A stretch of 64,000 nt of DNA from Candidatus Saccharimonadia bacterium (GTDB lineage Bacteria > Patescibacteriota > Saccharimonadia > UBA4664 > JBIOIQ01), in the NCBI GenBank assembly GCA_044449985.1, contig JBIOIQ010000002.1, positions 684-64,683 on the forward strand, in the 5' to 3' direction. The first letter of the stretch is position 1, and each line of letters begins with the position of its first letter. The notes under the pieces were generated by a model. It worked only from the letters and a program-made list of their open reading frames with translations, was not told the origin of the DNA and ran no database searches. Below are positions 2,424-54,729 of the stretch, piece after piece. The translations under genes were made by a program, and so were the position numbers.

Positions 2424-3903
2424 TTAGCTCGGAGTAATGCTGAGACAGGCGTGCTTTAGGGAAGCGACTTTTGAGATCTCCAATAATACCGGAGGTTTCG
2501 GTTGGAATAAAGATGATTTGTTTTTGGGGACTTCCGATTGGGAGTTTAGATATATCGGCCATCGGTAGATCGGTAATCTCGGCTCTCTTAAAGCTTAAGA
2601 AATCGATTATTTGGGCACTGGTACCGGTACTTACCACATAACGTTGCCCGCCGAATGAAGTTCGATTTAAGTACCCTGCCAGTTCGCGGGCGTTGTTATC
2701 GAAACTATCGGCCAGATCTGGTGAATTTGCCCAAGCGACGAAATATTGCTGATACCCTTGATAAATCCCCATGAGCAGTAGCACTACGATCGGCACGGTC
2801 CCGAGTGTTCGGGCGGCTGAATTAATCGGAAAAGTGGAAAACCAAATTTCTAGCATATAGTTAATACCGACGGCGGCGAGGATAAAGACAATGGGTGCGA
2901 GTACAATCGAGCTTTCTGAACTCGGTGCTACTTGCGAGCTGGCGACGACCGGGATTAAGAGTACACAAAAGAGAATAAGTAGTGTTCGGTAGCGAGCTTT
3001 TTCAAAGCGCATGCCACAGACCAAAACGCCTACTATAAACATCAGCCCAACGAATAAATTAAGCTCCGGAGTCCCCGGGATATTGTAAAGATAATTATCG
3101 TCGCCGTGCAGCACAAACCCGGTCAGCGTATCGGCCGTTCTAGTGGCAATATCATGAGCATTCACATTACTCAGGGTAAGTTTTGGCGGATGGGCCGAAA
3201 AGCGCCAGATAGCGAGCGGCAAGCCGAGAATTACAATGAGCGCAAACATTATGAGATGAGCACGCTCGAGCAGCTGGTTCTTTTGGGCCAAGGTATACAG
3301 TAGCGTTGCGCAGCTAAGGAGCAGTCCGAAGGCCAGCCAGAGTCCGGAGATGGCCGAGAATGAGCCGCCAATAATCAGTCCGGCGAAGATAAACCAACCG
3401 ATCTCGCGCTGGCGAAAGGCAATAATTAATGCGCTCAAGACGAGCGGAACGATAATTATCGGTAAAATTGCGGCGGTACCAAAGCGCGAAAATCCGACTG
3501 TCCATGGCGTTGTGGCGGCAAATAAGCTGGCGAGTACCCCAACTCGTTGGTCATACCACAGTGTACCTAAGACATACATGAGCGCAACACCAAAGAGTCC
3601 GATTAAGGCGGCGGGGAGCCTCAGCGCAAACAACGTCGGGCCAAAGATCTTGACACTCAAAAGTTGCATCACTGAAAATACTGCTCCGGCGCTTCCGTTA
3701 TGCAGAAGAGTTGTGTATTTGGCGCTGTGACGCAAAATTCCTAATATAAGCGTTGCATTCGAGGCTTCAGCTGGCGATAGTCCCGGCGGAAGAGTATTAA
3801 GGTTGTTTAAGAAAAAATAGGCGGCCACAATTAGGATCAGATAGAATCCTAGCGAAAAGCGGTTGTCGTAGATTCGTTTTAAGGTGTCAACTTTTTTACT
3901 CAT
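2380..3903 (-). CDS. GT-C fold ArnT/PMT_2-like membrane glycosyltransferase
   Basis: 507 aa with more than 10 hydrophobic helices and an N-terminal architecture like 4-amino-arabinose/mannosyl transferases. It is the second GT-C paralogue in this cluster. Confidence 0.72.
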   Translation of the reverse strand: MSKKVDTLKRIYDNRFSLGFYLILIVAAYFFLNNLNTLPPGLSPAEASNATLILGILRHSAKYTTLLHNGSAGAVFSVMQLLSVKIFGPTLFALRLPAALIGLFGVALMYVLGTLWYDQRVGVLASLFAATTPWTVGFSRFGTAAILPIIIVPLVLSALIIAFRQREIGWFIFAGLIIGGSFSAISGLWLAFGLLLSCATLLYTLAQKNQLLERAHLIMFALIVILGLPLAIWRFSAHPPKLTLSNVNAHDIATRTADTLTGFVLHGDDNYLYNIPGTPELNLFVGLMFIVGVLVCGMRFEKARYRTLLILFCVLLIPVVASSQVAPSSESSIVLAPIVFILAAVGINYMLEIWFSTFPINSAARTLGTVPIVVLLLMGIYQGYQQYFVAWANSPDLADSFDNNARELAGYLNRTSFGGQRYVVSTGTSAQIIDFLSFKRAEITDLPMADISKLPIGSPQKQIIFIPTETSGIIGDLKSRFPKARLSQHYSELNDNTQTFAVYQTQQ

Positions 3904-4376
3904 GTTCGAAATACCACTTTCTTATAAAGTATAAAATTCCAGGAGAGCGATACAACGGTCGCAGCCAGTTTGGCAGTATTTTTCGACACAAAATCAGTGC
4001 TCAAGTAGTGGTCTAAGTGCAAATATTTACTAAGTTTGTTCACAATCGCGGCTGGTTGTTTATAACGACTACTTAGAAGATAAATCACAATATTTTGCAG
4101 TACATAAACTCCAAAAGCGGTCACGAGATAAAAACCGATGATTTGAACCCAGAGGTTGCCACCATTTGAGCCAAAAACGAGATGTTTATTTGCAAAAAAA
4201 CTAAAGATCATAGCGATGGTGGTCGAAATAAAATTCGCCGAGATTCTCCCTAAATGAAACGTTTTCGTCGTGAGCACATTGTAAATGAAAAAGTCTATGG
4301 CAGTGTTGATAGCGCCAACCGAAACAAATTTAGCGAGCGTGCCAGCGAGCAAGACTAATACTCCGTTACGATTCAA
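3900..4376 (-). CDS. GtrA family membrane protein (putative lipid-linked sugar translocase)
   Basis: 158 aa with 4 hydrophobic helices and the motifs SVGAINTAIDFFIYN and FFANKHLVF typical of the GtrA family. It overlaps the downstream GT-C gene by 4 nt. Confidence 0.8.
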   Translation of the reverse strand: MNRNGVLVLLAGTLAKFVSVGAINTAIDFFIYNVLTTKTFHLGRISANFISTTIAMIFSFFANKHLVFGSNGGNLWVQIIGFYLVTAFGVYVLQNIVIYLLSSRYKQPAAIVNKLSKYLHLDHYLSTDFVSKNTAKLAATVVSLSWNFILYKKVVFRT

Positions 4377-4437
4377 GTATAAGCATAAGCAACAAACCTA
4401 CCTATGTAAAGCAATCTGGATCGTTATGCTCTTAGCT

Positions 4438-5814
4438 TTATTCCACAAAAGTTGGCGTAGCTTGGGCATCGAGGTTGCGAAACGTCAAAAGTTCCGGGTG
4501 GAAATAAAGCTCGGTTTGACCGGTGGGACCATTACGATGCTTACGGATCAAGATATCGGCAATATGTTGGCGATCAGTTTCTGGGTTGTAGTAGTCTTCA
4601 CGGTAGATAAACATTACTACATCAGCGTCTTGTTCGATTGAACCGGACTCGCGTAGATCAGACAGCTGGGGAACTTGGGGAGACCTGCTTTCAACCGAAC
4701 GTGAGAGCTGTGAAAGCGCGATAACCGGCACATTCAGCTCTCGAGCAAGGCCTTTTAAACTTCTTGAGATTTCCGAAACTTCTTGAACGCGGTTATCTGA
4801 GCGCGAGTTTCGTCCGCTCATAAGTTGAAGGTAATCGATGACGATCAGGCCCAAATCGTGTTCAGATTGTAGTCGTCTGGCTTTCGTACGCATTTCCATG
4901 ACATTGGTCATGGCTTGATCATCAATATAGATCGGGGCGTCAGAAAGTACCGCCATGGCATGATTTATTTTTGGGAAATCACTATCTTCCAGTTGTCCGG
5001 TGCGCAACTTCCAACTATCGACTCCAGATTCACCGGCCAGCAAGCGATCAATTAGTTGCTCTTTACTCATCTCGAGTGAAAAAATGCCGACGGGGATGCC
5101 TTCTTTGACGGCAACATGCTGGGCGATATTGAGCGCCAGGGTTGTTTTACCCATACTCGGACGAGCAGCCAAAATTATTAGATCGGATTTTTGCAGTCCT
5201 GCCAGTGTGTGATCGAGTGCCCGAAAGCCGGTAGGGATACCACGTAATTTATTATTGTCCTTATGCAGCTCGTCTAAGCGGTCAAAACTTTCAATCAGGA
5301 TTGAGCTGATAGGAATGAAATTCTGTTTGAGGTTTTGTTGAGAGACTTCAAACAAAGTTTTTTCGGCTTCGTCGAGCAGACCGTCCAAAGGACTATTCTC
5401 ATCGTAACCCATGTCAGTAATTTTTTGGGCGGCGGATATAAGCCTGCGCAGAGTCGATTTGTGAGCGACAATACCGGCGTAATGTACGACATGTGCGGCA
5501 GTTGGTACTCCGTCAACCAGCTCAGTTAGATAAGCCGCGCCACCTAATTTTTCAAGTTCGCCGGCACCTTCGAGCTTATTTGCTAGCGTCAGAAGATCAA
5601 TTGGTTGACGATTCTCATACAAATCAATCATAGCGCTGAAGATGAGCCCATGTTTAGATATATAAAAGTCATCCGCCACCACCATATCGGCGATTTTTAT
5701 AATGGCCTCATTATCGACCAAAATTGAACCAAGCAGACTGGCTTCCGCTTCGGTGTTTTGCGGAGGCAGTTTGGAGGTTAAATCCCCTTTGATTGTTTGT
5801 CCGGCTGATTCCAT
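4438..5814 (-). CDS. dnaB: replicative DNA helicase DnaB
   Basis: 458 aa with the N-terminal PPQNTEAEASLLGSIL motif, the Walker A ARPSMGKTT and the IVIDYLQLM motif. There is a TAATG overlap with the dnaX stop. Confidence 0.96.
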   Translation of the reverse strand: MESAGQTIKGDLTSKLPPQNTEAEASLLGSILVDNEAIIKIADMVVADDFYISKHGLIFSAMIDLYENRQPIDLLTLANKLEGAGELEKLGGAAYLTELVDGVPTAAHVVHYAGIVAHKSTLRRLISAAQKITDMGYDENSPLDGLLDEAEKTLFEVSQQNLKQNFIPISSILIESFDRLDELHKDNNKLRGIPTGFRALDHTLAGLQKSDLIILAARPSMGKTTLALNIAQHVAVKEGIPVGIFSLEMSKEQLIDRLLAGESGVDSWKLRTGQLEDSDFPKINHAMAVLSDAPIYIDDQAMTNVMEMRTKARRLQSEHDLGLIVIDYLQLMSGRNSRSDNRVQEVSEISRSLKGLARELNVPVIALSQLSRSVESRSPQVPQLSDLRESGSIEQDADVVMFIYREDYYNPETDRQHIADILIRKHRNGPTGQTELYFHPELLTFRNLDAQATPTFVE

Positions 5815-19838: not shown

Positions 19839-19914
<76 letters not shown>

Positions 19915-19970
19915 AGGAATTACTCATTTCTAACTCGCAACATGAATCGTAACCCGTGTATTATAGCGTA

Positions 19971-20132
19971 TTACTTAGTTTCGCGGTGAGCTAGCACTTT
20001 AGCTTCGTGCTTACAGTATTTATTTAGAATCAAACGTTCGGTTGTGTTCTTTGGATTCCGATCGGTAGTATAGTTCCGCTGATGACAACTTTCGCATTCT
20101 AGAGCAATAAATGGTCGATTTCGCTTAGGCAT
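19971..20132 (-). CDS. rpmG: 50S ribosomal protein L33
   Basis: Not in the ORF track (53 aa). My translation is MPKRNRPFIALECESCHQRNYTTDRNPKNTTERLILNKYCKHEAKVLAHRETK, which is classic L33. Confidence 0.9.
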   Translation of the reverse strand: MPKRNRPFIALECESCHQRNYTTDRNPKNTTERLILNKYCKHEAKVLAHRETK

Positions 20133-20325
20133 TCTTGGTTCCTTCTGCCGGGGTTATTAATGAGGCTATCAAATAAAAAATTGTACCTGGTAACACGCCA
20201 GATAGTACGACTATTGCCAGCACCAATAACCTGACGATGGTTGCGTCAACATCAAAATATTTGGCTAAACCACCGCATAAGCCGGTTAATTTGCGATCTT
20301 TGTTGCTGCGGACGAGGTGTTTCAT
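20125..20325 (-). CDS. PspC domain-containing small membrane protein
   Basis: 66 aa from the internal ATG of track ORF 20125..20547. The sequence MKHLVRSNKDRKLTGLCGGLAKYFDVDATIVRLLVLAIVV... matches the PspC-domain pattern. Its stop overlaps the rpmG start by 8 nt. Confidence 0.75.
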   Translation of the reverse strand: MKHLVRSNKDRKLTGLCGGLAKYFDVDATIVRLLVLAIVVLSGVLPGTIFYLIASLITPAEGTKNA

Positions 20326-20342
20326 AGCGACCTTTCTTATTC

Positions 20343-20417
20343 TGGAGCCCAAGGTGGGGATTGAACCCACGACCCCTTCCTTACCATGGAAGTGCTCTGC
20401 CACTGAGCTACTTGGGC
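20343..20417 (-). tRNA. tRNA-Thr (anticodon GGT), CCA end encoded
   Basis: A 75-nt cloverleaf: acceptor GCCCAAG/CTTGGGC, anticodon loop ATGGTAA, T-loop TTCAATC. Confidence 0.95.
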
Positions 20418-20459
20418 AAATACATGATGTGGCAATAAAATATTGCGGGTTTGTAAAAA

Positions 20460-20545
20460 TGGTGCCGGGTGAGAGATTCGAACTCCCGAAGGCGTACACC
20501 AGCTGATTTACAGTCAGCCCCCGTTGGCCGCTTGGGTAACCCGGC
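20460..20545 (-). tRNA. tRNA-Tyr (anticodon GTA), long variable arm, CCA end encoded
   Basis: 86 nt: acceptor GCCGGGT/ACCCGGC, anticodon loop CTGTAAA, T-loop TTCGAAT. Confidence 0.95.
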
Positions 20546-20626
20546 ATGTAATCAGTCTGCTCGCATCCGGCGATAGACTGATGAAATCTCTAAAAACTTT
20601 TTAAATTTAAAAAAGTTAATAGCTTC

Positions 20627-20702
20627 TGGAGCCGACGAGAGGAATCGAACCCCCAACCTACAGTTTACAAAACTGTTGCTCTGCCAATTGAGCTACGTCG
20701 GC
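20627..20702 (-). tRNA. tRNA-Thr (anticodon TGT), CCA end encoded
   Basis: 76 nt: acceptor GCCGACG/CGTCGGC, anticodon loop TTTGTAA, T-loop TTCGATT. The T-stem has two G-U pairs. Confidence 0.92.
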
Positions 20703-48795: not shown

Positions 48796-49119
48796 TTACA
48801 TTTTAATTTCGATGTCGACACCGGCAGGCAAATTGAGATTCATCAGAGCGTCTATAGTTTTCGGAGTAGGCTCTGTAATATCGATTAATCTCTTATGTGT
48901 GCGCATTTCAAACTGTTCACGACTATCTTTATGCACGTGAGGTCCACGAATTACGGTAAAGCCTTTCTTTTCTGTCGGTAGCGGTATCGGTCCTGCCACC
49001 AATGCTCCGGTGCGGGTAGCTGTATCGAGAATTTGTTTCGCCGACTGATCAATTACTTTACTGTCGTAGGCCTTCAGCCGGATTCGTATTCTTTGCTTCT
49101 GTTCAGTTTTTTCTACCAT
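48796..49119 (-). CDS. rpsJ: 30S ribosomal protein S10
   Basis: 107 aa with [19 protein letters not shown]. Confidence 0.96.
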
Positions 49120-49154: not shown

Positions 49155-50345
49155 TTACTTAAGAATCTTTGTAACAACTCCGGCTCCGACAGTTCGGCCG
49201 CCTTCACGAATTGCAAACCGTAGGCCTTCTTCCATCGCAATTGGAGCGATTAAAGTAACTTTCATTTGAACGTTATCTCCAGGCATAACCATTTCCATGC
49301 CGTCTGGAATTTGAATTTCTCCTGTAACGTCAGTGGTTCTAATGTAGAACTGTGGCTTATAGCCTTTGAAGAATGGAGTATGACGTCCGCCTTCTTCTTT
49401 CTTCAAAACATAGACTTCTGATTCAAATTCAGTGTGAGGTGTAATTGAACCAGGCTTTGCGAGAACCTGTCCCCGTTCGATTTCATCTCGCTCAATGCCA
49501 CGAAGCAGTGCCCCAACGTTATCTCCGGCTTGGGCGTCAGGAAGTAGTTTTTTAAACATCTCGACACCCGTCACCACAGTTTTCTTGGTTGGGTGAATAC
49601 CAACGATTTCTATTTCATCGTTAACTGCCAATTTGCCTTGTTCAATTCGACCGGTCGCTACGGTACCACGCCCTTTAATTGAGAAAACGTCTTCTACTGG
49701 CATCAGGAATGGCTTGTCCAAATCTCGCTTGGGGTCGGGAAGATAGTCATCCATTGCTTTAACAAGTTCTAGAATTGATTTTTCAGCTTCGGCATCACCT
49801 TCGAGAGCTTTTAGTGCTGAGCCCTTAATTATAGGCGCACCATCACCATCATAGTCATTTTTATTCAACAGCTCACGGATTTCCATTTCAACAAGTTCTG
49901 CGAGTTCAGGATCTGCCATATCCATCTTGTTCATGAATACCAAGATGGAAGGGACGCCCACTTGGCGAGCAAGCAGGACATGTTCTCTGGTTTGGGGCAT
50001 TGGGCCGTCAGCCGCTGAAACTACTAAAATGGCAGCATCAACTTGAGCTGCACCGGTGATCATATTTTTGACGTAATCTGCGTGACCAGGCATATCGACA
50101 TGAGCGTAATGGCGTTTTTCACTTTCATATTCTTGATGTGAAGTCGCAATCGTAATACCACGTTGTCGTTCTTCAGGGGCATTATCAATTTGATCGTATG
50201 CAACAGGTTTATTGATACTACTCGGCAAGTGTTTTGCCAGCACGCTAGTGATTGCTGCTGTCAAAGTCGTTTTACCATGGTCGACATGACCCATGGTACC
50301 GACATTGAGATGCGGCTTATTTCGAGAAAATGTTTCTGTAGCCAT
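49155..50345 (-). CDS. tuf: elongation factor Tu
   Basis: 396 aa with [18 protein letters not shown] and NKMD. Confidence 0.98.
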
Positions 50346-50370
50346 TTAAGCTCCTTAAATAATCATTATG

Positions 50371-50465
50371 GCGGGACTGTCACTCACGTCATCCTGAGCT
50401 TGATTCAGAATCCCTTGATATTTTGAAGGGATGTCTGAATCAAGTCCGGAATGACAGGTGGACCG
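50371..50465 (-). repeat. ~95-nt imperfect inverted repeat (long hairpin) in the tuf 5' UTR
   Basis: Hand-paired: 50412..50416 with 50426..50430 (9-nt loop), a near-continuous run from 50388..50411 to 50431..50455, and an outer GCGG/CCGC clamp. That is roughly 30 pairs including wobbles. T6 follows on the plus strand, and the SD AAGGAG of tuf follows on the minus strand. Confidence 0.7.
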
Positions 50466-50524
50466 CTTTTTTGTTATGTTGTTAAAAATGAGCAATAAAA
50501 ATAACCGCCCATTTGGACTTACCT

Positions 50525-50554
50525 ATTATATTGATATTGACCCCTACTTGTAAA
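50525..50554 (-). promoter_or_regulatory. putative tuf promoter (TTTACA-N18-TATAAT)
   Basis: The minus strand reads AAAACTCTTTACAAGTaggggtcaatatcaaTATAAT. It shares the 16-mer AAAACTCTTTACAAGT with the infA promoter. Confidence 0.5.
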
Positions 50555-50579
50555 GAGTTTTTACGTCTCTTAAAGTACT

Positions 50580-50612
50580 ATCGGCCTACTGGAATCATCC
50601 CAGCAGGCCGAT
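50580..50612 (-). terminator. 13-bp stem-loop downstream of small ORF b (weak U-tail)
   Basis: ATCGGCCTGCTGG-GATGATT-CCAGTAGGCCGAT on the minus strand. The single non-Watson-Crick position is G-U on the minus-strand RNA but A-C on the plus-strand RNA. Confidence 0.4.
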
Positions 50613-50615
50613 TAC

Positions 50616-50747
50616 TCAACTCTTTGGAGGCTTGGCAGCTTTTGTGGCTGGTTTGCCCTTTTTGGGTCGTTTCGGAGCAGCATGATCGATTGAGAAGAGC
50701 AAATGGTCGCATTGACCTTCGGGGTGCTCTTTGTCGAACGTATTCAT
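50616..50747 (-). CDS. hypothetical 43-aa protein with a Lys/Pro/Ala-rich tail (small ORF b)
   Basis: Not in the ORF track. My translation is MNTFDKEHPEGQCDHLLFSIDHAAPKRPKKGKPATKAAKPPKS. GGAG lies 12 nt upstream, and a stem-loop follows. Confidence 0.3.
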   Translation of the reverse strand: MNTFDKEHPEGQCDHLLFSIDHAAPKRPKKGKPATKAAKPPKS

Positions 50748-50763
50748 CTGTCAGGTCGTCTCC

Positions 50764-50907
50764 TTAAGCTGCCTTTTGATGTTGGGAATAACCATAACCT
50801 TGCTTGAACTCAAGGTTTGCTCTCGAAGACTCATCCAGTAGCTCGAATACACGAGAGATACCGAAACAGATCGCAAGTGCAACTACGACCAACAACAATA
50901 CTTTCAT
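50764..50907 (-). CDS. hypothetical 47-aa protein with an N-terminal hydrophobic helix (small ORF a)
   Basis: Not in the ORF track. My translation is MKVLLLVVVALAICFGISRVFELLDESSRANLEFKQGYGYSQHQKAA. AGGGGGAG lies just upstream of the ATG. Confidence 0.33.
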   Translation of the reverse strand: MKVLLLVVVALAICFGISRVFELLDESSRANLEFKQGYGYSQHQKAA

Positions 50908-51033
50908 GTCTCCCCCTATGATTTTTAGGTACGATCGGAAACCACAAAAACAAGGAATTGAATGAGTTTAGTATAACATTAACTAAAAAATGACCCAAGC
51001 CATGGGCTGTTTCTAGAAAAACGAACAAAATTC

Positions 51034-53115
51034 TTACTGACTAATGGCTTTTTTTCCGATAATTTCATCGGCCACATTTCGTGGAACTTCGTCATAGTGA
51101 TCAAACTCCATGGTAGACGAAGCTCTTCCTTGGGTCATACTGCGCAGAGTCGTAGTATATCCAAACATTTCCGAGAGTGGCACCATGGCATCGATGACCT
51201 TACCCATTCCTCGATCTGCCATTTTTTCGATTCTGCCACGTTTTGAATTTAAGTCTCCAATTACATCGCCCATAAATTCTTCGGGCATAACTACTTCGAC
51301 TTTCATGATGGGCTCGAGTAAGACTGGATCGCCCTTTCTGACGCCTTCTTGAAGAGCCATTGAACCAGCAATCTTAAACGCCATTTCACTTGAATCAACT
51401 TCGTGAAAACTGCCATCATAGAGCTTAGCTTTGACATCAACCACCGGATATCCTGCTAGCACTCCATTCTGCATGGCTTCTTTAACTCCATTTTCAACTG
51501 GGGTAATGTACTCACGAGGTACCGCGCCACCGACAATTGCATTAACAAATTCAAACCCTGCGCCTGGTTCCTGCGGCGTAAGTTCAAGCCAAACATGACC
51601 GTATTGACCCCGTCCACCTGATTGGCGAATAAATTTTCCTTCCGATTCGACAGTTTTTCGAATTGTCTCGCGATACGCAACTTGAGGCTTGCCAACATTT
51701 GCTTCTACTTTAAATTCCCGTTTCATTCGATCAACGATAATATCTAGATGTAGCTCACCCATGCCACTGATCAAGGTTTGACTCGTTTCATCGTCTGTTC
51801 GAACGCGAAATGTCGGGTCCTCTTCGGCCAGTCGTTGCAAAGCAATGCCCATTTTCTCTTGATCAGCTTTGGTTTTCGGCTCAATGGCAATTGAAATAAC
51901 CGGTTCGGGAAATGTAATCGATTCTAAAATAATCGGTTTGTCCGTATCACAAAGAGTATTACCTGTTGTCGTCGCCTTGAGACCGACCGCAGCGGCAATT
52001 TCTCCGGAAAATACTTCGGTCACTTCTTCGCGAGAATTAGCATGCATCCTAAGAATGCGTCCAATTCTTTCTTTTTCTCCAGTACTTGAGTTCAGAACGT
52101 ATGAGCCTGATTTTAAAGTCCCTGAATAGACTCTAAAAAATGCTAATTTTCCGACAAACGGATCAGCAGCAATTTTAAAAGCCAACGCGGCAAATGGTTC
52201 TGCGTCGTTGGCGTGACGCTCGATTTCTTCACCTGACTTTGGATCAATTCCCTTTATGCTGGGAATATCCAAAGGACTAGGCAAGTAGGCGTTTACGGCA
52301 TCAAGTAATTGCTGGACCCCTTTATTCTTTAAGGCAGAGCCGCATAATACTGGATAAATTTGACTTGAGATAACTGCTCTGCGGAGGGCATGTACAAGTT
52401 CTTCTTCCGATATTTCTTCAGCCATTAGAAACTTTTCTGTAAGAACTTCATCTGTTTCGGCAATTCGCTCTACCATAGTGTCATGAAACTCTTGAGCTTT
52501 TTGCTTCATGTCGTCTGGGATAGCAATAGTTTCAAAAACTTTACCGAGATCATCTTTAAATAAAATGGCATCCATTTTAATTAAATCGATTATTCCAGCA
52601 AAGCTATCTTCGGCGCCGATAGGTAGCTGAATAGCCACGGCATTCTTGTTAAGCCGATCCCAAATACTTTGAAGATCTTTATAATAATCTGCTCCCGTTC
52701 GATCCATTTTATTTACAAAGCAGATCCTGGGAACTTCATATTTGTCGGCTTGACGCCATACCGTTTCGGATTGAGGCTCAACCCCAGCTACTCCATCAAA
52801 AACTGTCACACCGCCGTCAAGTACGCGCAGGCTTCGTTCGACTTCCACGGTAAAATCAACGTGCCCAGGTGTGTCAATGATGTTTATACGATGATCTTTC
52901 CAAAAACATGTGGTAGCAGCAGATGTAATAGTGATGCCACGTTCTTGTTCTTGTTCCATCCAATCCATGGTTGCTTCACCCTCGTGCACTTCACCGATTT
53001 TATGGGTTTTGCCGGTATAAAATAAAATTCGTTCGGTGACAGTTGTTTTACCTGCATCGATATGAGCAATGATTCCGATATTGCGTGTTTGTTCGAGGGA
53101 GTACTCGCGAGCCAT
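51034..53115 (-). CDS. fusA: elongation factor G
   Basis: 693 aa with [17 protein letters not shown] and NKMD. Confidence 0.98.
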
Positions 53116-53149
53116 ATTATCCTTAGCTGATTTATTTAAATAATACTAA

Positions 53150-53175
53150 CCAAAAATATGCGCATAACTGCGCAT
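53150..53175 (-). terminator. rho-independent terminator downstream of the DUF296 gene
   Basis: The minus-strand RNA reads AUGCGCA-GUUA-UGCGCAU followed by AUUUUU. Confidence 0.6.
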
Positions 53176-53214
53176 TTACTGTAATTTTAACTATTTAACT
53201 TGCTTTTTACAAGC

Positions 53215-53646
53215 CTAGTTTGCTGAAATGTCCCAAACTTTTAAGCCAATTTCATCATCAAAAACTTTATCTAGCGTTGAATTTATCCTGGTAATAACAA
53301 GCTCGAGCGTGGCAGAGCAAGTTCCGGACACTAGATGCCCGGCTTTGACTTCAAGTTTATCGTCAGCAACTACCGTATGCAGGTGAACTTTTATGATTTT
53401 ATCTTGTAAAAATACATTGCCAAGCAGTGAAACTACTTCGTATATCCCTTGGAGTTTCGTTTCACTGAACTTGCGGCTAATCTTACTGTAATGGGCCAAC
53501 GTAGGATTACTGACAGATCCTATACCAGATATTTCGCCGTTTTCGATATTATTTCTTTTACAAGCATCTTGAATCTCACTCATAATATCGTCGCCCGATT
53601 CAAGCTTTACTATGAGGTGATCTTGGTCAATGTTTGAGAATTTCAC
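53215..53646 (-). CDS. PPC/DUF296 domain protein (predicted DNA-binding fold)
   Basis: 143 aa with a GTG start. The pattern LESGDDIMSEIQDACKRNNIENGEISGIGSV...LLGNV...HLH is typical of DUF296. Confidence 0.72.
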   Translation of the reverse strand: MKFSNIDQDHLIVKLESGDDIMSEIQDACKRNNIENGEISGIGSVSNPTLAHYSKISRKFSETKLQGIYEVVSLLGNVFLQDKIIKVHLHTVVADDKLEVKAGHLVSGTCSATLELVITRINSTLDKVFDDEIGLKVWDISAN

Positions 53647-53764
53647 TTGGTAGTTTGTTAGTTAAGTACAGCTTGAGCGTTTCTACCTAAAGTTGCAATA
53701 CTTTAGATGCTCTTAAAAAGTGTGTTTGTAAGTTATATTTTAAATCTAAAGCTAAAAAATAGGC

Positions 53765-54241
53765 TCAGTAGCGAGCAAAATGAGCAAAGGCTTTATTTGC
53801 CTCAGCCATTTTATGAGTATCTTCACGCTTTTTAATAGCGTCACCGGTATTATTGAATGCATTCATAAACTCGTCGGCTAAACGTGCGTCGAATGATTTG
53901 CCTGATTTCGTGCGTGCAGCAGCTAAAATCCACATCATCGCCAGATGAATTTTTCGATCTCCTCGAACCTCTACCGGGACTTGATAGGTAGCTCCTCCGA
54001 TTCGTTTTGCTTTCACCTGGACTTGAGGGGCAACATTTTTAATAGCTGCATCAAATACTTCCATGGCAGGAAGCTTCATCTTGGTTTCAACGCTATCTAG
54101 AGCTTTATACACCATTGATTCGGCGAGACGCTTCTTCCCACCTCGCATGACCTTGTTGATAAGCTTAGATACCATAACGTTATTATATTTGACGTCAGGT
54201 TCTAGTACGCGTTTAAATGACTTGGTTTTTTTACGTGGCAT
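53765..54241 (-). CDS. rpsG: 30S ribosomal protein S7
   Basis: 158 aa with MPRKKTKSFKRVLEPD...AFAHFRY-type end. Confidence 0.96.
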   Translation of the reverse strand: MPRKKTKSFKRVLEPDVKYNNVMVSKLINKVMRGGKKRLAESMVYKALDSVETKMKLPAMEVFDAAIKNVAPQVQVKAKRIGGATYQVPVEVRGDRKIHLAMMWILAAARTKSGKSFDARLADEFMNAFNNTGDAIKKREDTHKMAEANKAFAHFARY

Positions 54242-54315: not shown

Positions 54316-54729
54316 TTATGATTTAGGCTTCTTTGCACCATATTTACTTCGACCCTGGGCACGCTTGGCAACGCCTGCGGTATCAAGAGCACCACGAACT
54401 ATATGATAGCGAACCCCAGGTAAGTCCTTCACTCTACCGCCTCGTATTAAGACCACGGAGTGTTCCTGTAAGTTATGTCCAATTCCGGGAATATACGCCG
54501 TAACTTCCATACCATTCGTGAGTCTAACTCGAGCAATTTTTCTGAGCGCCGAGTTTGGCTTCTTTGGAGTTGTCGTACTAACTTTCGTACACACACCACG
54601 TTTAAGAGGGGACGGTGCAGCATAACTGTTACTTTTAAGCGAGTTAAGTACTCGATTTAAAGCAGGGGTCGTAGATTTACGCTTCTTATCGTGGCGAGGC
54701 TTTCGAATTAGCTGATTGATTGTTGGCAT
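54316..54729 (-). CDS. rpsL: 30S ribosomal protein S12
   Basis: 137 aa with [12 protein letters not shown] and [10 protein letters not shown]. Confidence 0.97.

Follow-up and report, generated by a model that had tools for sequence, protein, structure and literature searches.

The long hairpin in the tuf leader of a Candidatus Saccharimonadia bacterium is probably a decaying pair of CGTC-tagged repeats

The long hairpin that precedes tuf in this Candidatus Saccharimonadia (CPR) MAG is most probably a decaying selfish or Ssn-target repeat pair transcribed together with tuf as part of its 5′ UTR, a reading to which we assign a probability of about 0.7. Both arms of the hairpin belong to the CGTC-tagged REP superfamily, i.e., to NTS/Ssn-related motifs. 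The unit is widely distributed, has a habit of forming dimers and shows covariation in its stem, and a pair of units occupies the same site in three relatives. The hairpin thus corresponds to a known scattered repeat and the small ORFs of the same spacer have no relatives, so the original prediction, made from the sequence alone, describes a real but largely ordinary arrangement.

Organization of the fusA-tuf interval

Both genes lie on the minus strand of the window, the whole 64-kb stretch of DNA that was analysed, and are separated by 688 nt (Table 1), against about 690 nt in the original prediction, whose features are all present in the spacer at the coordinates given. The order proposed for them also stands, with an upstream unit, a terminator-like stem-loop, the tuf promoter, which is kept in the 5/5 relatives that have a readable leader, and the 5′-UTR hairpin. 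A gap of this size is long compared with bacteria generally, yet it is the shortest within its own clade. Among 39 loci of more distantly related lineages, 28 have a gap of 6–163 nt (metagenome fusA relatives of at most 73% identity, mostly 63–70%, a sample that is uninformative on spacer content), and the six clade relatives with a measurable gap have 1.5–2.2 kb. In this Saccharimonadia clade, small orphan genes occupy the fusA-tuf interval as a hypervariable slot.

A search of Rfam 15, proposed as a check, matches no family to the region: only four tRNAs pass the gathering thresholds across the whole window, and at E ≤ 10 positions 50200–51200 return just sub-threshold chance matches of the miRNA-hairpin type. 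The suggestion of a small RNA gene finds no support.

Table 1. Position of the features in the fusA-tuf region of the window.
Feature	Coordinates	Strand	Remarks
fusA (EF-G, 693 aa)	51034..53115	-	GenBank MFI5240275.1
Weak 5-bp hairpin, then CAUUUUUU	50993..51007	-	26 nt after the fusA stop
ORF47 (47 aa)	50764..50907	-	N-terminal hydrophobic helix; AGGGGGAG upstream; orphan, unannotated in the public record
ORF43 (43 aa)	50616..50747	-	Lys/Pro-rich tail KRPKKGKPATKAAKPPKS; GenBank MFI5240274.1; orphan
Strong 15-bp stem-loop	50580..50612	-	3 nt after the ORF43 stop; no U-tract
tuf promoter, TTTACA-N18-TATAAT	50525..50554	-	11/12 match; top-scoring promoter-like site within 4.4 kb
5′ stem-loop of the tuf leader	50486..50514	-	AAAUGGGCGGU / AUUGCUCAUUU, then U5; conserved
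Whole long hairpin	50368..50466	-	Two inverted units, 17-nt spacer with complementary ends, closing GCGG/CCGC pairs
Left arm, forward repeat unit	50430..50455	-	tGTCATTCCGGACTTGATTCAGAcATC; decayed, with a 1-nt insertion and own-stem mismatches
Right arm, repeat unit on plus strand	50388..50412	+	cGTCATCCTGAGCTTGATTCAGAATC; its minus strand fits the search pattern GATYCYGAATCAAGYYCRGRATGAC
Shine-Dalgarno (SD) AAGGAG of tuf	50351..50356	-	Unpaired in the predicted fold; conserved in all leaders
tuf (EF-Tu, 396 aa)	49155..50345	-	GenBank MFI5240273.1

Anatomy of the long hairpin

The minimum free energy fold of the minus strand contains 35 pairs and a 9-nt loop (−42 kcal/mol) and ends 22 nt from the tuf ATG; it is slightly longer and closer to the gene than the hairpin of about 30 pairs first described. 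Segment 50346–50520 has a z-score of −5.1, and 0 of 200 shuffles fold equally well. The hairpin represents an inverted dimer of two small palindromic repeat units with outward-pointing tags. The right arm reads caCGTCATCC on the plus strand and the left arm ccTGTCATTC on the minus strand, and the units end in ATC-CCT. The right unit, ATCCTGAG/CTTGA/TTCAGAAT, forms six Watson-Crick pairs, one G-T pair and one mismatch; the left unit, ATTCCGGA/CTTGA/TTCAGA(C)AT, is decayed. As single-unit hairpins the two are weak (−1.8 and −6.5 kcal/mol), and the strong pairing is that between the arms.

A covariance model made from 120 units, R1, matches the right arm at 50384–50416 (+) with 32.3 bits (E = 1.6e-5) and the left arm at 50459–50426 (−) with 19.1 bits (E = 0.023). 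The two arms are the only R1 matches in the window, the next best having E = 3.2. Counting copies, as had been proposed, gives a single pair in 64 kb, with no further unit pair in the window. No convincing target-site duplication surrounds the window pair. The pair of one relative, L227, is flanked by ACCAGGT/ACAAGGT, and the window lacks such flanks.

Distribution and covariation of the repeat unit

The unit of 25 nt runs from YGTC through an 8-bp stem, which starts with A-T/T-A and encloses a CTTGA loop, to a C that follows the stem. The exact 25-nt pattern of the right arm occurs in at least 120 DNA stretches from about 115 assemblies among the GTDB representative genomes, where about 0.1 would be expected by chance. 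The widely scattered, REP-like family to which the original prediction likened the hairpin is confirmed, and the miniature mobile repeat is the role that the evidence favours among the four offered. The hosts among the matches listed include Sphingomonas, Bacteroidota, Patescibacteria, Saccharibacteria, Dehalococcoidia, Treponema, Elusimicrobium, Gastranaerophilales and Sulfurimonas. Generalised units number 312 in 852 kb, versus about 8 by chance, and 90 of 131 neighbouring pairs are convergent with a spacing of 3–60 nt, which is the layout seen in the window.

Covariation was read at the two stem pairs that the search pattern leaves unconstrained. The first is C-G in 77 units and T-A in 53, with four C/A and three T/G combinations (p = 3e-29), and the second is C-G in 21 and T-A in 115, with one C/A (p = 8e-24). 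In 263 distinct family units that have 5-nt loops, GTC is preceded by T (159) or C (90). ATC is followed in the family by T (191) or C (59), with variable bases beyond. The alignment of 120 units shows no variation at G5, T6, C7, A8, T28 and C29, partly by construction, because the collection of units required GTCA...C. A full-text literature search with the unit sequences returned no match to the 25-mers, and the 12-mers gave merely primer coincidences.

Association with GIY-YIG nuclease genes

Of 8 loci chosen by GIY-YIG protein homology alone, the unit scan finds units flanking the gene in 6, and visual inspection adds a seventh. The canonical NTS GTCATTCCCGCGAAGGCGGGAATC is found on both gene sides among these GIY-YIG loci. 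The CTTGA subtype is also associated with GIY-YIG genes in other genomes (L080, L028, L140 and L235), as exemplified by a Patescibacteria MAG (L080, 5320–5709) with the order unit, GIY-YIG gene, inverted unit, in which the units are of the CTTGA type. The GIY-YIG assignment is confirmed by Pfam PF01541. All-against-all clustering of the ORFs in 120 unit loci yields only housekeeping families besides the small GIY-YIG proteins, and no Y1 transposase recurs beside family units in those loci. No GIY-YIG or ssn gene is present in the 64-kb window, and none of the GIY-YIG type in 81 kb of relatives' DNA.

The NTS-ssnA-NTS architecture and the restriction of Ssn to cleavage of ssDNA are described by Chenal et al. 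(2025, Nat Commun 16:2388, PMC11893778), who cover the Neisseria dRS3/NTS. The genes flanked by the motifs in their description are small, single-domain and of the cd10448 GIY-YIG type. Binding and cleavage of the ssDNA motifs are shown there only for Neisseria and Wolbachia enzymes. The published SRM pattern, HGTCWYN(0-2)YYVSBRHN(0-5)WNVSBRGN(0-2)RNCYNB, has no match anywhere in the window; as a regex it recovers the canonical NTS, but neither window unit nor any typical CTTGA-loop unit. By analogy, the superfamily hairpins would be bound and cut, when single-stranded, by the small GIY-YIG Ssn nucleases that they flank. The arrangement of unit, short spacer and inverted unit in the window corresponds to a unit-ssn-unit cassette minus the gene, and the pair therefore resembles a REPIN, MITE or NIME.

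The same anatomy, in which two inverted short palindromes form one long intergenic hairpin, is shared by classical GTAG REP doublets (REPINs), which are mobilised by RAYT, an IS200/IS605-like Y1 transposase. That the window pair is such a doublet is highly improbable. Its tag, CGTC/TGTC, already contradicts this identification, and the only recurrent neighbour gene encodes a small GIY-YIG nuclease, not a Y1 transposase. CGTC REPs are, moreover, reported to lack an association with RAYTs (PMC3733652).

Comparison of the tuf leaders in relatives

The tuf leaders of five relatives (L227, L229, L231, L233 and L234) can be read alongside that of the window. The promoter and the SD are conserved in all six, with CTTTACAA and TATAAT invariant. 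A unit pair lies at the same site in three of the five relatives, L227, L229 and L233, the last with a different subtype of the 9-bp-stem CGTC type. The pair is absent from the leaders of L231, which has short hairpins only, and of L234, which has an unrelated palindrome. The pair-bearing genomes group together in an EF-G tree, and the DNA of the relatives contains scattered single units or pairs. Units bracket fusA and tuf in several relatives.

The original prediction had also offered a regulatory element for EF-Tu. A dedicated element of this kind has no support, because the unit occurs in unrelated contexts and many phyla and the pair is absent from two relatives. A broader version of the idea is that the long hairpin is a selected cis-acting RNA of the tuf leader, possibly exapted from a repeat, which could stabilise the mRNA, serve as a processing site or regulate translation, perhaps thermally. 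Five of the six leaders do have a long hairpin downstream of the 5′ stem-loop and ahead of the SD, with differing sequences (z = −5.1 in the window, −5.7 in L227, −1.4 in L229, −3.1 in L233 and −2.3 in L234); it lies downstream of a promoter conserved in six leaders and, in the window, close to the ATG. In the window the arms pair strongly with each other although each unit hairpin has decayed, and the parallel change from CTTGA to CTCGA in the loops of both arms, seen between the window and L227, preserves the long helix. These parallel changes can, however, also come from gene conversion between the arms. The hairpin sequences are not homologous in all of the relatives, the same unit pairs recur in at least 120 DNA stretches from unrelated species and contexts, and the mismatches and G-U pairs of the long hairpin are symmetric on both strands, without a strand-specific RNA signature. 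Selection on the RNA is, on this evidence, unlikely.

Two versions of a further, unlikely reading may be considered. A large hairpin placed after the conserved 5′ stem-loop and ahead of the SD may be a requirement of the tuf leader in this clade, which would have obtained it repeatedly from different palindromic repeats: CTTGA-type pairs in the window, L227 and L229, a 9-bp-stem CGTC pair in L233 and an unrelated palindrome in L234. At the DNA level, the units around fusA and tuf in several relatives may be cut by Ssn and so restrict the recombination of ssDNA entering these naturally DNA-scavenging epibionts, by analogy with those around key Neisseria genes.

We favour the interpretation as a decaying repeat pair, for which a plausible history can be outlined. 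The pair may have entered the tuf leader in the ancestor of part of this Saccharimonadia clade, at a site between the conserved promoter and 5′ stem-loop and the SD. The weak unit hairpins, the single copy in 64 kb and the lack of an ssn gene in view would reflect its present decay as a repeat. It would now be transcribed within the tuf 5′ UTR, with the arms pairing into the long hairpin. As the predicted hairpin leaves the SD free, it would be tolerated, with at most a mild effect on mRNA stability.

The hairpin on the plus strand

Read on the plus strand, the hairpin closes with GCGG/CCGC pairs that run directly into TTTTTT (50467–50472), and its fold reaches −47 kcal/mol, whereas no U-tract lies 3′ of the hairpin on the minus strand. 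The T6 that suggested the shape of an intrinsic terminator, facing antisense transcription leaving tuf, is thus present. The remainder of this proposal fares less well and makes it very improbable. The nearest plus-strand ORF, whatever its length, is 3 kb upstream, past four minus-strand genes, so that no adjacent upstream gene exists to be terminated. The A6/T6 run belongs to an A-rich linker and is unconserved, not being adjacent to the hairpin in L227 or L229. A 100-nt stem-loop with 35 pairs is also far outside the usual geometry of terminators and is unlisted by a terminator scan.

The tuf promoter and the other stem-loops

The predicted TTTACA-N18-TATAAT promoter holds up in position and quality (Table 1) and is conserved in relatives. 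We infer this promoter and the transcript ends from conservation only. Together with the predicted 5′ stem-loop, the putative promoter is conserved across this Saccharimonadia clade. The 5′ stem-loop starts about 5–8 nt after the presumed transcription start, folds in five of the six leaders, including that of the window (z = −2.4 to −3.7), and is clear in four relatives. Its pairs vary between G-C, G-U and A-U from leader to leader, and two-sided changes are present.

The stem-loop that follows ORF43 is stronger than the 13 bp originally claimed, with 15 pairs including G-U pairs that become A-C on the plus strand, a free energy of −26.4 kcal/mol and a z-score of −6.1. A terminator-like hairpin also stands immediately before the tuf promoter in L227, L231 and L234. 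The stem-loop is probably a terminator or the 3′-end hairpin of the upstream transcription unit. The hairpin with U6 after fusA, already described as weak, folds no better than shuffles (z = −0.7) and is at most a weak terminator.

The small ORFs

The two small ORFs described in the spacer are both present. ORF47 is unannotated, as stated; ORF43 is annotated in GenBank by the NCBI pipeline as 'hypothetical protein ACHQUB_01010'. Neither turned out to be conserved in relatives: searches of the relatives' fusA-tuf intervals gave no match to either ORF (all E > 0.1), and no homologue of either was found among 5.8 billion protein clusters. The ORF47 sequence is absent from a collection of 15 billion proteins. 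ORF47 and ORF43 are lineage-specific orphans in the hypervariable gene slot. Remnants of YggT-like or other small genes in the spacers of relatives were considered as their origin and rejected, as no tblastn or tblastx similarity was found.

Whether the ORFs are expressed as real proteins, a membrane-anchored 47-mer and a basic 43-mer from a small operon running from fusA to the stem-loop at 50580–50612, is doubtful. Coding potential was scored by leave-one-out codon usage, which replaced an overfitted dicodon model. For each ORF its own frame scores best of six. ORF43 outscores 92% of size-matched spurious ORFs, is preceded by a perfect AAGGAG and is followed by a strong hairpin. The slot of the relatives, furthermore, holds 2–5 small genes that have no Pfam match and include at least two hydrophobic products. 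Against this, the codon score of ORF47 lies at the 3rd percentile for real gene fragments, a value that 20% of spurious ORFs also reach. The SD spacing is poor in both cases, at about 2–4 nt from the start codon in ORF47 and 12 nt in ORF43, and the stretch from the fusA hairpin to ORF47 lacks any promoter-like site. The lack of homologues also weighs against real proteins.

Implications

A striking 100-nt hairpin before an essential, highly expressed gene is here best regarded as a repeat insertion and is not to be catalogued as a new riboregulator. The SRM pattern misses a widespread CTTGA-loop subtype that flanks Ssn-like genes, so pattern-based surveys undercount the family; the undercounted subtype flanks Ssn-like GIY-YIG genes in CPR bacteria too. 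The conserved tuf promoter and 5′ stem-loop, together with the hypervariable fusA-tuf slot, are useful for annotating reduced Saccharimonadia genomes. The picture of EF-Tu regulation is unchanged unless the exaptation reading is true, in which case the mRNA of the most abundant protein in the cell would have gained a structural or regulatory part by exaptation of a selfish Ssn-target repeat.

Comparison with known systems

The REP/BIME hairpins of Escherichia coli and the 5′ stem-loop of the ompA leader are mRNA stabilisers. Classical REP stabilisation shields upstream RNA from 3′ exonucleases and operates at intercistronic or 3′ positions. The window hairpin shares with these stabilisers the character of a stable repeat-derived hairpin that would be transcribed inside an mRNA. 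It differs in being internal to the 5′ UTR, about 50 nt from the presumed 5′ end, and for this reason neither mechanism transfers directly. To our knowledge, transposition or other mobility has never been demonstrated for this CGTC/Ssn repeat family.

Compared with NTS/SRM motifs (PMC11893778), the units have the same GTC(A/T) head preceding the palindrome, a feature that Neisseria cleavage requires, and the same hairpin core followed directly by a C, the key binding base in Neisseria. Canonical NTS and CTTGA-loop units alike flank small single-domain GIY-YIG genes as inverted units. By contrast, the published degenerate pattern skips the CTTGA-loop units, those of the window included, and the window has no ssn gene. 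The window pair is located in a 5′ UTR, whereas the studies in Neisseria deal with clusters near surface-protein genes and with transformation.

REPINs and BIMEs (Bertels and Rainey 2011, PMC3116915), as well as NIMEs, which in Neisseria are repeat units bracketed by dRS3, likewise consist of two inverted palindromes and a spacer that form a long hairpin. With REPINs and NIMEs the pair further shares the layout of a non-autonomous derivative of a repeat-flanked gene and a variable, patchy copy number between relatives. REPINs differ in their tag, GTAG instead of CGTC, and in the associated enzyme, a Y1 transposase instead of a GIY-YIG nuclease.

The closest parallel is provided by the CGTC-tagged REPs of Di Nocera, De Gregorio and Rocco (2013, BMC Genomics 14:522, PMC3733652). 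These have an 8–9 bp stem starting with AT, a 4–5 nt loop and a tail, form inverted dimers, lack RAYT association and carry at one palindrome end a CGTC tag that is often TGTC or CCTC. The five phyla listed in that paper exclude Patescibacteria/Saccharimonadia, and the families described are multi-copy, in contrast to the single decayed copy in this 64-kb region; the tail is CCC/CCT in the window, versus the consensus CCA. The nearest families have an 8-bp stem and a 5-nt loop, placement with CGTC-2 being by description only. The likeness extends to the CGTC tag in the right arm and its common TGTC variant in the left, the 8-bp stem opening with A-T and T-A, the 5-nt loop and, less clearly, the short pyrimidine-rich tail. 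It also extends to the occurrence mostly as inverted dimers, whose short spacers may have complementary ends and which form one large stem-loop, to the location between co-directional or convergent genes, and to the presence in several phyla.

A paired repeat unit ahead of tuf

The long hairpin predicted ahead of tuf is present in the window, and none of 200 shuffles folds equally well. Both of its arms are copies of one short palindromic unit: cGTCATCCTGAGCTTGATTCAGAATC in the right arm, read on the plus strand, and tGTCATTCCGGACTTGATTCAGAcATC in the left arm, read on the minus strand. A unit and an inverted unit thus stand 17 nt apart, their GTC ends facing outward, and the two ends of the 17-nt spacer are complementary (ATCCCTT / AAGGGAT). 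A covariance model of the repeat unit (R1), built from 120 units and scanned over the whole window with no filters, matched one arm best (32.3 bits, E = 1.6e-5) and the other arm second (19.1 bits, E = 0.023), the next-best match having E = 3.2. The hairpin is thus a typical, somewhat decayed dimer of the unit family, and its unit pair is the sole one within the 64 kb. Folded singly as RNA, the two unit hairpins are weak (-1.8 and -6.5 kcal/mol); one unit carries an inserted base, and several transitions lie in the outer stem halves.

Features of the window and of comparison loci (L-numbers)
Feature	Sequence	Position	Strand	Remarks
rpsL	window	54316-54729	-	
rpsG	window	53765-54241	-	
PCC-domain gene	window	53215-53646	-	GenBank MFI5240276
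fusA (EF-G)	window	51034-53115	-	GenBank MFI5240275
fusA-tuf spacer	window	50346-51033		688 nt
ORF47	window	50764-50907	-	47 aa
ORF43	window	50616-50747	-	43 aa
Stem-loop	window	50580-50612		15 pairs, -26.4 kcal/mol, z = -6.1
Promoter + leader stem-loop	window	50486-50554	-	
Long hairpin	window	50368-50466	-	35 pairs, -42 kcal/mol
tuf (EF-Tu)	window	49155-50345	-	GenBank MFI5240273
rpsJ	window	48796-49119	-	
Four-tRNA gene cluster	window	19842-20702	-	
Promoter + leader stem-loop	L227	4390-4450		
Promoter + leader stem-loop	L229	9715-9795		
Promoter + leader stem-loop	L231	9445-9530		
Promoter + leader stem-loop	L233	10118-10175		
Pair at window's position	L227			forward unit intact, reverse partial; R1 36.3 and 20.8 bits; fold z = -5.7
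Pair at window's position	L229			decayed
Pair at window's position	L233			different CGTC-type unit, 9-bp stem, GTCATCCTGAGCAAAGCGAAGGATC
Unit, GIY-YIG gene, unit	L080 (Patescibacteria)	5320-5344, 5356-5673, 5685-5709		CTTGA loops; architecture as L239-L241

All other elements of the original prediction were likewise found in the sequence. The 5-bp hairpin plus U6 after fusA folds unremarkably compared with shuffles (z = -0.7), the stem-loop at 50580-50612 is very strong, and the TTTACA-N18-TATAAT promoter, at 11/12, is the top promoter-like site of the region. Rfam at the gathering threshold returned nothing in the whole window beyond the four clustered tRNAs. Both small ORFs are present as described, but ORF43, predicted to be unannotated, is already in GenBank (MFI5240274.1). 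Neither has a homologue among 5.8 billion protein clusters, and the fusA-tuf intervals of relatives hold nothing similar; conservation gives them no support. Their codon usage is ambiguous: in leave-one-out scoring ORF47 ranks at percentile 3 among real gene fragments and 20% of spurious ORFs reach its score, against percentile 10 and 8% for ORF43.

The unit family across bacteria

At least 120 stretches in the GTDB representative genomes (596 Gb) match GATYCYGAATCAAGYYCRGRATGAC, a degenerate 25-mer based on the right arm; for a pattern with its information content, an estimated ~0.1 matches would be expected there by chance. Hosts among the matches listed include Alpha- and Gammaproteobacteria, Bacteroidota, Spirochaetota, Chloroflexota, Elusimicrobiota, Campylobacterota, Melainabacteria and several CPR groups including Saccharibacteria. 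With the unit generalised (GTC, 8-bp stem tolerating one mismatch, loop of 3-8 nt, then C), 312 units were counted in 852 kb around the matches listed, and shuffles predict ~8. CTTGA is the loop in 179 of the 312 and CTTGT in 38, and the stems vary (ATCCTGAA, ATTCTGAA, ATGCTGAA, ATTCCGAA, ATTCCGGG, ATTGCGGA and others). The two stem pairs left free by the search pattern covary near-perfectly among the matches listed: C-G 77, T-A 53 and other 7 at the first, and C-G 21, T-A 115 and other 1 at the second (Fisher p = 3e-29 and 8e-24 across species, kinship ignored). Around the same matches, 90 of 131 pairs of neighbouring units are convergent at 3-60 nt spacing. By our own count, units lie between co-directional genes in 67 cases, convergent in 22 and divergent in 4.

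Short tandem partial repeats, with GTTCAGGATGAC several times, stand behind some units (L076, L104, L109, L127). The viral-classed IMG/VR contigs 3300028845_000195 and 3300010223_000008 (L008, L011, L013, L016) carry three to five AGATCCTGAATCAAGTTCAGGATGAC units each.

The tuf leader and the fusA-tuf interval in relatives

The region immediately upstream of tuf is alignable across relatives, and the window leader was compared with those of L227, L229, L231, L233 and L234. All six share a CTTTACAA-N17/18-TATAAT promoter, an initial transcribed GTCC and the SD AAGGAG. A stem-loop of ~11 bp, GGGC.../...GC(C/U)C, is clear in five of the six, with a U-run behind it in four; its changes include G-C/G-U/A-U exchanges and a few two-sided ones, and some are compensatory. 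No Rfam family matches it, and it might serve to stabilise the 5' end or as a promoter-proximal attenuator. Just upstream of the tuf promoter, L227, L231 and L234 have a terminator-like hairpin, which supports the reading of stem-loop 50580-50612 as the end of an upstream transcription unit. This conserved leader architecture is a by-product of some value.

Lying between the conserved promoter and the SD, the repeat pair would be transcribed within the tuf 5' UTR and fold into the long hairpin. The inserted base, the transitions, the lack of copies nearby and the absence of a GIY-YIG gene from the 64-kb window make this copy look like a relic, and the free SD would explain why it is tolerated. 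In a rough EF-G tree the genomes with the pair cluster separately from L231 and L234, as expected if a single ancestral insertion later decayed or was replaced, although the tree is nearly star-like. Units also occur elsewhere in the loci centred on fusA: a pair ending 10 nt ahead of the fusA ATG (L230 5910-5992), and single units directly behind the fusA stop (L227 2937-2970) and the tuf stop (L231 10805-10828).

The main rival explanation is that the long-hairpin structure itself is under selection. Some long hairpin does stand at that position in five of the six leaders, but these hairpins are non-homologous across the clade, L231 is without one, and the non-canonical pairs are symmetric between strands. 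Between the window and L227, the loops of both arms differ alike (CTTGA to CTCGA), with the long helix kept intact, although gene conversion between the arms explains these parallel changes equally well.

The original observation is confirmed and its interpretation partly supported. The proposed resemblance to a REP-like hairpin family was correct. A dedicated EF-Tu regulator is unsupported, the unit family occurring in many phyla and the pair being absent from the tuf leaders of L231 and L234; a small RNA is likewise unsupported. A plus-strand terminator fails on three counts: no plus-strand gene lies upstream, relatives do not conserve the A/T run, and the geometry is wrong for one.

The nearest EF-G relatives have 85-89% identity, and eight such loci were fetched (L227-L234). 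In all six with a measurable fusA-tuf interval, it spans 1.5-2.2 kb and holds two to five small genes without a Pfam match, so the slot is hypervariable and the window spacer is its shortest form; this hypervariability is a by-product of some value. A YggT-like gene lies directly before tuf in L227 and mid-interval in L231, and a similar one comes after fusA in L228, whose contig does not reach tuf. In more distant lineages the gap is 6-163 nt in 28 of 39 loci. The str operon is broken up in this Saccharimonadia clade (window 50346-51033, 53116-53764; L227-L234): the rpsG-fusA and fusA-tuf intervals differ in content genome by genome (for example PCC domain, ABC ATPase, Metallophos, PIG-L, NUDIX and GMP synthase genes, and several small orphan proteins, some membrane), and rpsJ is followed by unrelated genes instead of rplC. 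L234 has a reverse-transcriptase (RVT_1) gene ~1.4 kb upstream of fusA (3688-4644).

Association with Ssn-like genes and comparison with known repeats

Clustering of ORFs around the 120 loci listed gave a lone recurrent neighbour, a GIY-YIG protein of ~100 aa, at five loci, two of which (L028 and L080) have a unit immediately 3' of its gene. In an independent test, eight loci were drawn from viral contigs by the GIY-YIG protein alone. The unit scan placed units beside the gene in six of them, and a reverse unit was seen by eye in a seventh (L236). In L239-L241 (1436-1818), the matched coding region is preceded at 37-41 nt by a forward unit and followed, 37 nt past its end, by an inverted one (GTCATTCCCGCGAAGGCGGGAATC). 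Small Ssn-like GIY-YIG genes within inverted units, some with CTTGA loops, also occur in L028 (3250-3492), L140 (1295-1744) and L235 (1501-1966).

Chenal et al. (2025, PMC11893778) describe just such a system, in which Neisseria NTS/SRM hairpins, CGTCATTCCCGCGMAVGCGGGAATCYRG, flank ssnA, encoding a 94-aa single-domain GIY-YIG nuclease. This nuclease binds the hairpin solely as ssDNA and cuts a few nt upstream; cleavage depends on the three bases ahead of the palindrome and binding on the C behind it, and NTS-ssnA-NTS was likened to an insertion sequence (PMC11893778). Intact units of the family would be Ssn substrates when their DNA is single-stranded. The spacer of many pairs ends in ...CATGA or ...TGA abutting the inverted unit (L027-L146; e.g. 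L033, L128, L039, L104), and in unit-ssn-unit cassettes an inverted unit closely follows the stop codon; pairs may thus be internal-deletion derivatives of such cassettes that retain the gene's final bases.

The published SRM degenerate pattern (PMC11893778) matches the canonical NTS but neither the window units nor typical CTTGA-loop units. The pattern therefore under-detects this very widespread subtype, which was likely undercounted in the SRM survey. That the pattern misses it, and that it flanks Ssn-like genes in CPR bacteria, are further by-products of some value.

The same repeats had been catalogued earlier as CGTC-tagged REPs (Di Nocera et al. 2013, PMC3733652). In that catalogue the units have CGTC or TGTC as their tag, a stem of 8-9 bp that begins with AT, a loop of 4-5 nt and a short tail, and they occur chiefly in inverted dimers with 20-100-bp spacers that can form a large single stem-loop, mostly between co-directional or convergent genes and without an associated transposase. 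Our gene contexts agree with that description. The window element is a repeat of this already known type, in a host phylum that lies outside the 2013 catalogue.
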